From assembly GCF_964355755.1 (NCBI RefSeq), contig NC_092670.1:32476388-32540387 (forward strand): DNA of 64,000 nt, read 5' to 3'. Positions 33,801 through 39,800 of the stretch are shown here, one piece after another. This DNA is from Antedon mediterranea. Its lineage: Eukaryota; Animalia; Echinodermata. How positions within the stretch are numbered: position 1 is the first letter of the stretch; every line of letters begins with the position of its first letter. The position numbers and the translations under genes were made by a program. The notes under the pieces are model-generated. The model saw nothing but the letters and a program-made list of their open reading frames with translations, had not been told where the DNA came from and ran no database searches.

Positions 33801-36800
33801 TATCTAAATGCTTAGTAAATTGTAGGTCATGAAAGTCAAGAGGGTGACATTTTATTCAAAGCACTTAAAATTAAATACTATGTAAACATTTACATAGAAA
33901 TAACAGTCAACAGACACCCAGTCAAATGTTTTAGAAAAGGCCTATGCTATTAAAGTTTTTATGTCGATGCTGAAAATAAAGTCAATTAACTCATATGGAT
34001 GTTTTTGACCTCTTGACGTGTAAAGATGGCCGAGAATTCCCGAGAAAGATGTAGCAGTAGAATTTAACCTAAGAAATATTTTGTGGGAAATCATCATTTT
34101 AATAACATTTCATGACTCATTCCCTACAATTGTTAACGTTTTGTAAAAATCATGCATATACTTTAAAAACATTAAACAAGGTCATTCCTTGTCTTAAATG
34201 TACGTTTTATGGTAAATTATGATAATAAGAGAGAAACAATGTAATACCTATGTAGCTCTCATCGTATGTCCTATTGTGGACTGTCTTGCGTAGCTAGGTT
34301 TAGTTTCGTAGGCCTAGCTAGTAAACAGCAGTAACGTATAAACATACGCTAGCTATGGGTCTAGCCCGAGGTTGTCTAGTTGCTGCATTAATTGCCCTTC
34401 TGTTTTTGCCAGAATCTGTTATTAAAACAAATTGGGGAAAACCCTGTATTTTCACTGAACAGTAATGTTTCTTCATTTTTAGCCCTCACAAATCGATCAA
34501 AAGTGGGTGAATCACAGAAGAAAAACGAAAATATTAAACCGCGCATGTTGGGATTTATAGCGGCCACTTAAATTATTAAAATCGACTTCTTTTTAGTTGC
34601 GTGTAACGCAACTCTACAGCTCACTATGTTGGGTGTTCGGTCAGACGGTTGGTTGGTAAACACTAACTTGAGCAAGTGACTGCAGCCATGTATCCTTGTT
34701 CATATTTTTAACCATTTAAAGACGAAAAAAGTTATCCCAATAGGACCATATAGTATTTATTTTTACATTAAATGCAGTTTGCGACCTGGAATTCAATCTA
34801 AAAAACGTAGGGAATGGGAAACACTTTTATTGCAAACACAGTATTTTAAAGTGTCGCAGAATGAATAATGTGAATGGGGTAGGAAGACATCACAAACAAA
34901 GACATACTTTTATAAATATATAAATGAATGATACTCAACCATTCTCATAGACTATATTAATACTATAAACCAATACAATAAATAAAGTCCAATATTATAT
35001 TTTTTTATACGTCCGTATTTAATCATTTTTGTTAAGCTTAAAATGCAAATTAGATAAATTTATACATCAAATATTAATAATTAATTATTGTTTTTTTTCT
35101 TTATTAGCTATACAAAACATTATACACATAAAGGAATTTGATATTTGTATTGGTTGTATAGGATAGGAGCTTGAGGATTAATAAAAAGTGTTATATACAG
35201 TTTGTAAATACTGTACCAGTTACAATAATCAAGATAACGATGATTTGTTATCTTGTTAATATAATTATTTAATAATGCAATGCTTATTTCTGCTGCTCGC
35301 TTATGGAAGTGAGTGGTGGTGGTACCCACTCTGGGCCAGTTACATTTTTAAATGCATGTATATGTCCATAGGCTTCAGGTAGTCTTCAGCATCCAATGAT
35401 TTCTTAAATTGAAGTTCTTGATATTCAGTTGAAGCATTTGTAATAACCTCAACACGGTTTGCAATTGTTGATTCATTATCGGTTGACTTTGATCTTTGTC
35501 TGCTGTTTGAAGTTTTAATAATGTCTTGGTGACTTCTTTTCCTTTTTGGATGTTTACTGTAGTTTCTTCTAAGAATTACGTAAAGTGATAACATGACAAC
35601 CAACAAAAGTAAGCAAATTGTCACTATCAATATTATGATGATGACATCATTATCAGAATTGTCTGTAACTTTAGATTTACTTATCTGTGTAGTTAATGGA
35701 CTTGTCTGTTTTGTTGTATCTGTTGGTACAACATCTGCTACTGTGAATTTAATCTCACCTGACTTGTTTTGAGCTGCAGTAGTTACAAGACACTTGACAG
35801 TGTATTCACCAGTAGTTAAGTTATTAAAACATCTTTCATCGTCATTCTCCCCATTGTATCCTGTCTCCGATAATACATCAGAAGTCCATTGATAATCCTT
35901 TGGACCAGATCCACCTATAGCTAGGCATTTAAAGCAATGTTCGCGGTTTCCATGTATTGTCATCATTTTCAAATTCAGTTTAGGATAAACCGGTAAAGTT
36001 AATGTGTAGCATCTGTTTGTATATTTGTTTGCAACAGCATATTCTGAAATACAATAAAAGAATATTCCATCTCCACTTTGGTAGCCTTCAAATGTTAGAT
36101 TCAAATTCTGTGTTCTTGTATTACTATCTAAATTATAGGAATCTGTAATGTTATGTTTTTCTTGAATCCATCCAATAGTTATTTCATGTGTGTTAGAGAG
36201 ATTATCACAATTTTTAAGAGTACAATTGGATGTTACTTGCTTTCCCTCAATGATGTCTACAAACTCCTCACAAGCTATTTTGCAGATTGGATATTCAGGA
36301 ATGTGATTCTGCTTGACGTCACCTAAAGGAATCGCAAAATGCTTATTATCTTCATCTTGACATGTGTAAATTCCTATATCTTCCTGTCCACTGTAGGATA
36401 TGAAGTGTTGACATTTTACTGCTGTTGACCTTTCCACTTGGTTCTTGGTAAATACTGGGTTATTGTAAAATGTATACTGTTGATAGTCTAATCTACCCGT
36501 ATACGTTTTATTTGGGATGTTTAAGATGTTGACAGGAATCTTCGTCACAATGTACCTAAACTCATAATCAAATTCAACATACTTTTCATCTGCAGTCACT
36601 TGGATAATTAATAAACACATTGTAATCAGACTAAAATGTTGTAATGCCATCATTTCTTAAATAAAATTAAACTTCTTGAATGTAGTGAAGAAACAGATCA
36701 TTTAAATGTTTAGATATGAATAGAAGAAGTTGTCGGTGTTAGTTTCAGTTTATAATGATTTTTTGTTCATGTTCTCTGAATTTATTTTGTACTTCCATGA

Positions 36801-39800
36801 CATGTTTCCTCAATTGTTTTCCTATTGATATAATCCAATACAATAGGTTCTGTCAGTTGTGGTTATAAAATCGTTTAATACCTACTGCTGCAATTCAATT
36901 GCTCTACCAGACCACAAGATAAATTAAGAAATATTAATGTACAAATAAAAACGTGCAGAAACATTGGATTGTGTAATGAGACAAATGTCATTGAACTCGG
37001 GGCTTGCAGAATCTCTAAACATTAGGTTCCCATAAAAAATGATGAGAAAAGCTAATTAATTTCAAGACTTTGTTCAAATATCATAATTTTTTCTCGGTGA
37101 CGAAACAACTCCACTCCCATGTGTTTGTTTGTCTTTGAATTTAAACAAAATGCTTTTAAATATGCAAAATTGGATTATCAATTTATATTCAATTGTAAAA
37201 AGGCAATATTTTACATTTGATTTTAGTTAGCATTAGACTTTTTAATACACAAAGGTAGATTATTTTCATTTGATAGGAGGATTGTGGGCCATGTAATTTT
37301 CAAGAGTATAGTGTTTTGTATAATTCGTTTTCGTCTACTCATTGTTCCCGTCTTCAAGGAGTCCAAGATTATTTTGTTCGTTTAGTCTAATCTACTACAA
37401 CTGTCACCCCTTGTCCATTTCTCTTCCATCCCTTGTTTCTCATTATTTCATCTTTAATTTTCAGTTTCTGTTTAATTGAATATTCTGTATATTATTGTGA
37501 TTTTATTTTGCGGTTCTTCTTTCATGTAAAAATTGTTGGATCGTACTCATAATTCTTTATCTTTTATCCATTCCTTTTGCTGTATCAAATGCTACCAAAA
37601 ATATATTTATTGGATGTTACTTGCTTTCCCTCAATGATGTCTACAAACTCCTCACAAGCTATTTTGCAGATTGGATTTTCAGAAATGTGATTCTGTTGGA
37701 CGTCACCTAAAGGAATCGCAAAATGCTTATTATCTTCATCTTGACATGTGTAAATTCCTATATCTTCCTGTCCACTGTAGGATATGAAGTGTTGACATTT
37801 TACTGTTGTTGACCTTTTTACTGGGTTCTTGGTAAATATCGAGTTATTGTTAAATAAATACAGTTGATAGTCTAATCTACCCGTATACGTTTTATTTGAG
37901 ATGTTTAAGATGTTGACTGGAGTCTGCGTCAGAATGTACTTGTAGATAAAATCAAATTGAACATATTTTTCATCTGCAGTCACTGGGATAATTAATAAAC
38001 ACATTGTAATCGGACTAAAATGTTGTAATGCCATCATTTCTTAAATAAAATTAAACTTCTTGAATGTAGTGAAGAAACAGATCATTTAAATGTTTAGATA
38101 TGAATAGAAACAGATCATTTAAATGTTTAGATATGAATAGAAGAAGTTGTCGGTGTTAGTTTCAGTTTATAATGATTTTTTGTTCATGTTCTCTGAATTT
38201 ATTTTGTACTTCCATGACATGTTTCCTCAATCGTTTTCCTATTGATATAATCCAATACAATAGGTTCTGTCAGTTGTGGTGAAAAAATGGTTTAATACTT
38301 ACTGCTGCAACAATACTCTACCTACCAGACCACCACAGAATAAATTTACATTTCATAACATCCTTCTAGTTAACATTAGCATTAGACTTTTTAATGCACC
38401 TAAAGTAGATTCTTTTCATTTGATTGGAGGATTTGTGGGCCATGTGATTTTCAAGAGTATAGTGTTGTGTATAATTCGGTTTTGTCTACTCATTGTTCCC
38501 TTCTTCCCGTCTTCAAGGAGTGGAGTCCCAGATTGTTTTGTTCGTTTGTCTAATTTCTACTTACCACACTGTCTGTTCCCTTGTTTCTCATTATTTCATT
38601 TTTAATTATTAGTTTCAGTTTAATTGAATATTCTGTATATTATTGTGATTTTATTTTGCGGTTCTTCTTTCATGTAAAAATTGTTGGATCATACTCATAA
38701 TTCTAAATATCTTTTATCCATTCCTTTTGCTGTATAAAATGCTACCAAAAATGTATTTCTTGTATCCGTCTACTTTTTAATAATTTTGTGCAAAAGATTC
38801 CATTGATCCTTTTTTTGATAGTTATCAATGTTTTTGTAATAAGATCTTTGATATTGATTTAAGATAAGTTTTTAAAATATTTTATTTTGAACAAATAATG
38901 AATGTTTTATATTCATGAATGGAACAAATAATTTCAATCTAGAAACAATAAAAATGTGTTATATTTTCACCTTATGAACTTACCATTGCACTCATAGTTA
39001 ATTCAAATATTTGTTTATTAATTTTTAAAATAATTATTATAACTAGATGATACGCAAGCGAAGCGAGTGTACCATCTAGTTCGTGCCCACAGATGGTTCT
39101 CCAATACACAGTAATTTCAGCGTAAAAAAAATGGCGATTTCAAATGTACGTACGGCAGGACTATAAAACATTGTAGTCAACCAAAATTAGCACCAAATGA
39201 GTCCAATTTTTTAATTGGGACTTATTTAAACAAATCCAATTTGTGTTTTGTATCTAACATTAGAGTTGAGGGTTGGGGATGAGGATAGGTACAAAGAGGA
39301 ACAATGTTTTAAATATATTCTTTATATTAAATTATTCTTTATACTTCTTTATTATCCACTCGAAATATTTTTTTTATAGGCCTATAAATAATATACCACT
39401 AAATAGAGTAAAACATTAACGATTTAATACTTTGTTAAAACTGTCACTGTCTCATAGTTGATTGAAATAGTAAAGTACATTTAAAGACCACTACTACTAC
39501 GTTTATATTTTTGTAATTATTAATTAATACAAACGTTGAGAAGCAACTGTCAGTAATAAAGTATTATATTATTATGTGTTTATAATCTAAAAGTAGGAGC
39601 TACCCACACTCACAGTGATAAAGTTTATTAGTATATTTGTTTATATTATATCAGTACCAACACACTTTTGATTCAAATGGAGATCAAAAGTGGTTTAATA
39701 CCTATTTACAGTATTGTATAGCATTACAATACTATTTATGTTTATTCTCCAAGGGTCTATAAATATACCTACTTGTGTTAAACCATGGAGGTATTTGCAT

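Follow-up and report, generated by a model that had tools for sequence, protein, structure and literature searches.

A partial tandem duplicate with mosaic divergence in a cluster of predicted Ig-like receptor genes of the crinoid Antedon mediterranea

A 64,000-nucleotide stretch of the Antedon mediterranea genome (RefSeq assembly GCF_964355755.1, contig NC_092670.1, positions 32,476,388 to 32,540,387 of the forward strand), hereafter called the window, carries eight related open reading frames (ORFs) on its minus strand. These ORFs, termed A, B, C (split), D, E, F, G and H, are spread across 6.2-43.0 kb of a window that is AT-rich in base composition (GC ~0.3), and a tblastn search of the window yielded no ectodomain copies beyond those eight. 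Intact members encode an N-terminal hydrophobic segment, ~290 extracellular residues, a transmembrane (TM) segment and a tail, with tyrosine motifs in most tails. In A, B, D, E, F and H, everything from the signal peptide through the tail is encoded by one ORF, as expected of single-exon genes. On the basis of structural models, the cluster genes are predicted to encode cell-surface receptors with three immunoglobulin (Ig)-like domains. Here we consider mainly the adjacent genes F and G, which a preliminary description of this DNA had presented as recent duplicates under diversifying selection.

Gene F (35340..36653, minus strand) is an uninterrupted single ORF encoding 437 amino acids. Its predicted layout comprises a signal peptide, three beta-sandwich domains that fill the model of the ectodomain, a Thr-rich stalk, a TM segment at residues 337-355 and a tail with tyrosine motifs at residues 409 and 430. 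Domains 2 and 3 (~residues 121-309; 35727..36293) adopt the Ig beta-sandwich fold in the model, and comparison with the ESM Atlas led to generic Ig clusters (0.90-0.92). The canonical pin of B-strand Cys, C-strand Trp and F-strand Cys was not found in domain 1, where there is no conserved Trp and the sole invariant Cys pair (C81 and C98) is only 17 residues apart. This pair is located in the domain 1 core (codons 79-113; 36315..36419), which also carries a D-x-G-x-Y-x-C motif of the Ig F-strand type. The N-terminal half of the domain (codons 24-78; 36420..36584) is variable, and the structure model places in it a first strand at residues 30-37 and a low-confidence loop at 59-75 (predicted local distance difference test score, pLDDT, <50). 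Proximal upstream DNA of F occupies 36654..36860, and a motif scan detected a TATA-like hexamer ~100 nt ahead of the F start codon (ATG).

Gene G (37585..38037, minus strand) is a 150-amino acid ORF that consists of F-like codons 1-143, seven junction codons and a stop, and it lacks a TM segment. Homology to F stops at codon 143 (37609), where the frame enters non-coding DNA, and the DNA that follows immediately is the start of the block upstream of F, and this block in turn duplicates the one that precedes G. G thus represents the 5' portion of a tandemly duplicated segment that comprises upstream DNA and 429 coding bases. The duplicate recognized in the preliminary description is real, and it does not amount to a full gene, a point which that description missed together with the further upstream reach of the duplicated block. 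At the junction (37603..37615), codon 143 of G is fused to the start of the F upstream block with microhomology at five of seven bases. The proximal upstream DNA of G (38038..38277) includes a 33-bp tandem duplication at ~38073-38105, and the duplicated block reaches ~0.4 kb past this proximal stretch, to ~37608 for F and 38758 for G. Its distal non-coding copies (37225..37608 for F and 38374..38758 for G) differ by 21 mismatches in 362 positions and by 11 gaps. Four AATAAA/ATTAAA hexamers are located within 362 nt past G, which is unremarkable for AT-rich DNA. From its sequence, the G product may be a single domain that is secreted. Splicing of the G domain onto F was also considered and dropped, given that the ORFs are single-exon and that no acceptor was seen by eye at the matching position of F.

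The differences between F and G are distributed very unevenly. A recount over codons 1-143 agrees with the 22 differing residues given previously, and these arise from 25 codons and 31 nucleotides. Only two of 69 nucleotides differ in codons 1-23, compared with 25 of 165 (15.2%) in codons 24-78 (37804..37968 in G) and four of 195 in codons 79-143. The ~105 bp of coding identity reported earlier corresponds exactly to codons 79-113 (0/105), and the four later differences are all in codons 114-143. Likewise, the near-identity of ~210 bp of upstream DNA is borne out by a 207-nt alignment in which the copies differ by one substitution and G carries an additional 33 nt. The next 52 nt upstream include five mismatches and three gaps, such that the distal duplicated DNA has in total 26 differences over 414 aligned positions (6.3%) and 14 gaps. 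The earlier placement of the changes in patches at residues ~27-39 and ~59-78 is largely correct, in that 17 of the 22 are within 27-78 and the clustering is significant; five (9, 18, 114, 119 and 121) are outside. With 5000 permutations, both the longest identical run (107 nt, p=0.003) and the densest cluster (12 differences in 45 nt, p=0.002) are unusual, and heterogeneity over six segments is strong (chi2=46.5, df 5, p=7e-9). Relative to the distal non-coding divergence, the proximal upstream DNA (1/207, p=0.0003) and the core (0/105, p=0.004) are too similar, and codons 24-78 are too different (p=0.002).

Because the distal block is 6.3% diverged and carries 14 gaps, the F-G pair forms a mosaic and is not recent throughout. 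The recency that had been read from identical upstream DNA does not hold, given that E and H also share the conserved proximal DNA. Identical tracts call for explanation as much as the variable tract does. F-G differences favour positions at which H and E also differ (14/20 versus 45/98, p=0.04), and the residue replacements tend slightly towards conservative ones (p=0.06). The patch positions vary throughout the paralog family, and the earlier view of receptor-like genes with a variable membrane-distal region is upheld.

Positive selection is not demonstrated by the F-G pair alone, although it had been proposed from this comparison. By the Nei-Gojobori method (NG86), omega (the ratio of nonsynonymous to synonymous rates, dN/dS) comes to 1.07 over the whole alignment and to 1.41-1.45 within the two patches (Fisher p 0.46-0.52). 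Maximum likelihood (ML) estimates are 1.26 overall, 1.06 for domain 1 and 1.55 for codons 24-78, with p values of 0.43-0.91 against omega=1. In codons 24-78, synonymous and nonsynonymous divergence rise together (ML dS 0.13 and dN 0.20), with changes at five of 40 synonymous sites (12.5%) and at 20 of 134 nonsynonymous sites (14.9%).

Comparisons among more members of the family yield a stronger, though fragile, signal. All site models were run with our own implementation (F3x4, fixed topology, 3-4 sequences) rather than with codeml or MEME. For E, F, G and H (120 columns), models with an omega>1 class are favoured (M1a/M2a p=1.2e-4, M7/M8 p=1.2e-5, M8a/M8 p=1.9e-5), and this class comprises ~20% of sites with an omega of 6. 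M8 assigns to it sites 31, 36, 38, 59, 63, 66, 68, 70, 119 and 123, and the signal persists for E, F and H without G (197 columns, p 1e-6 to 1e-7). False positives that arise from rate variation are the stated subject of a preprint (bioRxiv 10.1101/174839). The omega>1 class remains significant when either site-rate variation (p=0.021) or multi-nucleotide changes (p=0.018) are allowed for, and trimming of gap-adjacent columns (88 left) gives p values of 0.004, 0.23, 0.014 and 0.26. Overall, p<0.05 was obtained in 10 of 16 model and column combinations of the control runs and not in the other six. Domain 2 alone (77 columns) gives p values of 0.0035-0.017, and it is the only domain that is significant with both controls (p=0.017). 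Block-specific branch lengths leave support for the class (p=0.004), and none of 67 simulations under a mosaic null matched the observed statistic. Domain-wide omega for other paralog pairs stays under 1 (0.29-0.85) in all but one of 20 comparisons; the outlier is domain 3 of F and H, where divergence is tiny. Together, these results are suggestive of an omega>1 class in the family that is neither robust nor confined to domain 1.

Traces of sequence exchange are most apparent in domain 3. Protein identity among E, F and H is 88-94% in this domain versus 43-52% in domains 1-2, and dS is 0.02-0.14 versus 0.5-1.0. Specifically, dS between F and H is 0.91 and 0.99 in domains 1-2 versus 0.024 in domain 3, and dS between F and E is 0.71 and 0.60 versus 0.14, such that mosaic divergence of the F-G kind recurs across the family. 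DNA for domain 3 and the TM region of F (35727-35984) is 85-100% identical to that of E (31962-32220) and H (42109-42360). The membrane-proximal part is strongly homogenised among these three genes, and this is the clearest conversion signature at the locus. For the F-G pair, a Sawyer-type run test singles out a tract at ~codons 79-113 (p=0.043, uncorrected). Patchwork gene conversion, which the preliminary description had offered as its alternative, fits this pattern, and exchange of DNA in pieces likely accounts for no less of the F-G patchiness than positive selection does.

The cluster is best read as a birth-and-death receptor cluster. On balance, we favour the view that G belongs to this receptor cluster and that the F-G patchiness records a tract-wise conversion history along with probable diversifying selection at a minority of sites. 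A microhomology-mediated duplication would have copied ~0.75-0.95 kb of upstream DNA and 429 coding bases, after which the copies would have diverged to ~6% in distal non-coding DNA. Conversion or constraint would then have reset the proximal upstream and domain 1 core tracts, whose identity was likely maintained by gene conversion in combination with purifying selection. The distal half of domain 1, being variable family-wide, would have escaped homogenisation and either kept or received older divergence. Selection or conversion would have maintained the open frame of G, and full-length members would presumably signal via their tail tyrosines after ligand binding at domains 1-2.

Several observations weigh against this combined reading. 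The omega>1 class across E, F, G and H falls to p=0.11 when rate variation and multi-nucleotide changes are controlled together and to p=0.26 with both controls after gap trimming. For the A-D subfamily (199 columns), p shifts from 0.005 to 0.64 with controls, and 11 of the 67 mosaic-null simulations passed the nominal 5% level. The Sawyer result for F and G is one of nine pair tests and fails correction (the other eight gave p 0.044-0.94). In the core and proximal tracts, conversion is inseparable from strong purifying selection because other pairs are conserved there too. No donor for the G patch is present in the window, where domain 1 of G is 52% identical to that of H and 47% identical to that of E. 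Patch synonymous divergence (12.5%) is not significantly above that of the distal DNA (6.3%; p=0.18, few sites), and patch nonsynonymous divergence is (14.9%, p=0.0035), such that selection alone could explain the excess. Furthermore, the distal block includes a repeat of high read depth, and its use as a neutral yardstick may be doubtful. Fold searches with domain 1 were uninformative, and the model of this domain is poor.

Sequencing reads bear on two other explanations. Five public runs from two samples cover the stretch, and we examined four of them as collapsed contigs. One is that G is an assembly artefact in which two haplotypes of one gene were set in tandem. Against this, in the X1 and X3 contigs, an F-only piece (35949-36254) meets a shared piece starting at 36225, which is precisely the F position of the G breakpoint. 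The shared proximal upstream DNA has about the summed depth, the F and G upstream blocks are each represented by their own perfectly matching contigs, and an F variant with only single-base differences occurs in the same sample. None of the listed contig pieces spans the 37609 junction, which is the one point in favour of an artefact. G is thus present in the reads and not only in the assembly, and we consider an artefact extremely improbable. Unequal crossing-over between two divergent functional alleles of a balanced-polymorphic locus would make the F-G contrast an old allelic difference, and this would account for an intact, constraint-respecting G beside diverged, indel-rich flanks. Among the variants listed for the two samples, at least two sites are in F codons 24-78 and at least three are in domain 2. 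Three of the five listed F variants are synonymous and two are nonsynonymous, and the variant base equals the G base at codons 39 and 66, which speaks for an allelic origin. In contrast, the F contig of the second sample differs at only three of 467 nucleotides (35955-36421), and its contig over the G upstream DNA (38285-38683) has no mismatches and one gap. We see no sign of hyperpolymorphism in these two samples, as judged from collapsed contigs and listed variants, and we regard an old-allele origin as decidedly unlikely. Extra contigs were evaluated as new F alleles, and two are explained by H and E instead. Neither of these genes accounts for the joints from 35939 and 35942 to 36045 or for the variants at 35688-35712. 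The unexplained contigs may be further alleles or paralogs of the same sample outside the window, including a possible third-gene donor. Word-index homolog searches returned the window's own paralog E or nothing, with a low sensitivity that missed P0056 of the query alignment.

Two further explanations place the cause in the evolution of the copies themselves. The main proposal of the preliminary description, that strong positive selection acted on only domain 1 after a recent duplication, gains from the nonsynonymous excess in the patch over the distal DNA (20/134 versus 26/414). It also gains from the location of eight of the ten M8 sites within codons 31-70 and from the M1a/M2a result for block 22-78 alone (p=0.012). 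We nevertheless consider it rather unlikely, given a pair omega of 1.06-1.55 that no likelihood-ratio test separates from 1, patch synonymous sites that are themselves 12.5% diverged, residue changes at the neutral expectation (17 observed versus 16.7), and distal duplicated DNA whose 14 gaps do not look recent. Alternatively, G could be a dead fragment in neutral decay since the duplication, with relaxation responsible for an omega near 1. This would agree with its truncation, with an L9P change in the predicted signal peptide, and with the polarisable changes (n=13), eight of which are derived on G and five on F, so that both lineages have changed. However, uniform decay cannot yield the observed clustering, and neutral simulations of the patch stayed free of stops in only 1684 of 5000 cases. 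At the distal gap rate, 7.3 indels would be expected in the 429 nt of G, and none is present (P=0.0007). G also departs from the family consensus at only two of 19 conserved columns, both in common with F. Simple decay appears to fit poorly because there is no indel and no conserved residue lost, and we judge a dead G to be improbable.

Paralog A (6225..7970) encodes 581 amino acids with four tail tyrosine motifs, one of which matches the pattern of an immunoreceptor tyrosine-based inhibitory motif (ITIM). B (10698..12104; 468 amino acids) and D (26127..27932; 601 amino acids) have tails of pentapeptide repeats. E (31395..32894) encodes 499 amino acids, and H (41449..43017) encodes 522 with an ITIM-pattern match at 494. 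Among the tails, only those of A and H contain the ITIM pattern, and F has a near-motif (TxYxxL), although short patterns of this type arise by chance. A pattern scan found no immunoreceptor tyrosine-based activation motif (ITAM) in any of the nine cluster ORFs. In paralog C (14177..15596), the ectodomain (14727-15596) and the TM/tail region (14177-14737) are separate ORFs in different frames. The frame change just ahead of the TM segment leaves a 289-amino acid ectodomain-only ORF, which is either a second candidate soluble form or a pseudogene. Arrays of the 15-bp (pentapeptide) repeat are located at 10400-10920, 17150-17600, 19130-20340 and 26160-26720, including the tails of B and D. Those at 17.2 and 19.1-20.3 kb have no adjoining ectodomain and resemble orphan 3' remnants.

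The whole cluster appears to be nested antisense within one intron of an Nramp/SLC11 gene. The exon that ends at 3176 can be joined in frame to the one that starts at 44180 through a GT/AG pair, as read from translated frames, and the two would delimit a single phase-0 intron of ~41 kb (3177..44179, plus strand). Six plus-strand exon frames at 44.1-54.8 kb match PF01566 in profile order, over profile positions 11-343, in a scan that covered 150 of 247 frames, and the later Nramp/SLC11 exons thus extend to ~54.8 kb. The upstream exon at ~3.1 kb has no Pfam match and is assigned through the in-frame splice pair and a DPGN motif, which we take to be an Nramp signature. Various repetitive elements accompany these genes. 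An 89-bp inverted repeat pair (5069-5157 and 6002-6090; 98% identical) just downstream of A possibly resembles a miniature inverted-repeat transposable element, and a short repeat of very high copy at 39069-39174 has a depth thousands of times that of single-copy DNA. Past the Nramp exons, 55346-62503 (minus strand) resembles a long terminal repeat (LTR) retrotransposon with an integrase (PF00665), a reverse transcriptase-like ORF, a PHD-finger-like Cys pattern and broken frames. Its direct repeats of ~300 bp (55346-55653 and 62210-62503) are 92% identical. An endonuclease/exonuclease/phosphatase frame (PF03372) at 62967-63998 (plus strand) is probably part of an element of the long interspersed nuclear element (LINE) type.

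Some features of the cluster recall known recognition systems. As described in the literature, the Hydractinia Alr1/Alr2 family of the allorecognition complex consists of single-pass receptors encoded in tandem. These have as many as three Ig-like domains of unusual profile and ITIM/ITAM-type tails, domain 1 being the most variable and under positive selection (PMC9546547, PMC8282982, PMC3276163). According to the same papers, partial-duplicate pseudogenes directly upstream of Alr2 swap sequence with it by conversion or unequal crossing-over, and the Alr genes have one exon per domain (PMC9546547). The cluster described here likewise combines receptor genes, a partial upstream duplicate and a variable domain 1. 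In contrast with the Alr genes, its members are single-exon and lack ITAMs, and by these traits they are not members of the Alr family. The Botryllus Fester family and FcoR are lineage-restricted, clustered receptors of the Ig superfamily (IgSF) with tyrosine motifs, diversified by intergenic recombination, and FcoR has Sushi domains and alternative splicing (PMC12582321). Clustered IgSF receptors with tyrosine motifs are the feature shared with the receptors predicted here. Unlike in FcoR, no Sushi family was found at E<=1 in the nine cluster ORFs, which do not belong to that group either, and the cluster is not known to have cognate gene pairs or an allorecognition phenotype.

Within A. mediterranea, the uncharacterized protein XP_071957072.1 matches domains 1, 2 and 3 in succession, with 41% identity to F (E=1.4e-52). 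This crinoid protein is the only full-architecture match among the six named of the 150 profile matches listed, and it differs in being a 249-amino acid model that lacks an N-terminus and a TM segment. Nectin-like, IgLON, NCAM and CD22-type IgSF proteins are 13-18% identical, which indicates likeness at the level of the fold and no orthology. The vertebrate paired-receptor clusters KIR, LILR, Siglec and CEACAM evolve by birth and death: the parts near the membrane are homogenised, the distal domains vary, and some members are truncated and soluble. These are multi-exon genes whose products have ITAM-adaptor partners, and the cluster here differs in that the TM windows examined include no charged residue. 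Targeted searches at the level of titles and the starts of abstracts found no literature description of such a family in crinoids or in an Nramp intron.

For work on duplicate pairs, the lesson from F and G is that an identical flank can overstate both recency and selection. The interest of the locus lies mostly in the undescribed cluster itself, in its nesting, and in the possibly living truncated copy G. Self/non-self recognition in one hydroid and one tunicate relies on diversified clusters of Ig-type receptors whose tails carry tyrosine motifs. A tentative proposal, which we consider rather unlikely, is that this cluster would be a crinoid immune or self-recognition locus, single-exon and set in an Nramp intron, that has converged on Alr and FcoR. 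Domains 1-2 would then be under diversifying selection, and G would be a living, secreted domain 1 decoy or a sequence donor with its own specificity. A compact cluster of single-exon genes is easy to genotype by polymerase chain reaction, and its allele diversity, its expression upon challenge and its binding specificity are all testable.

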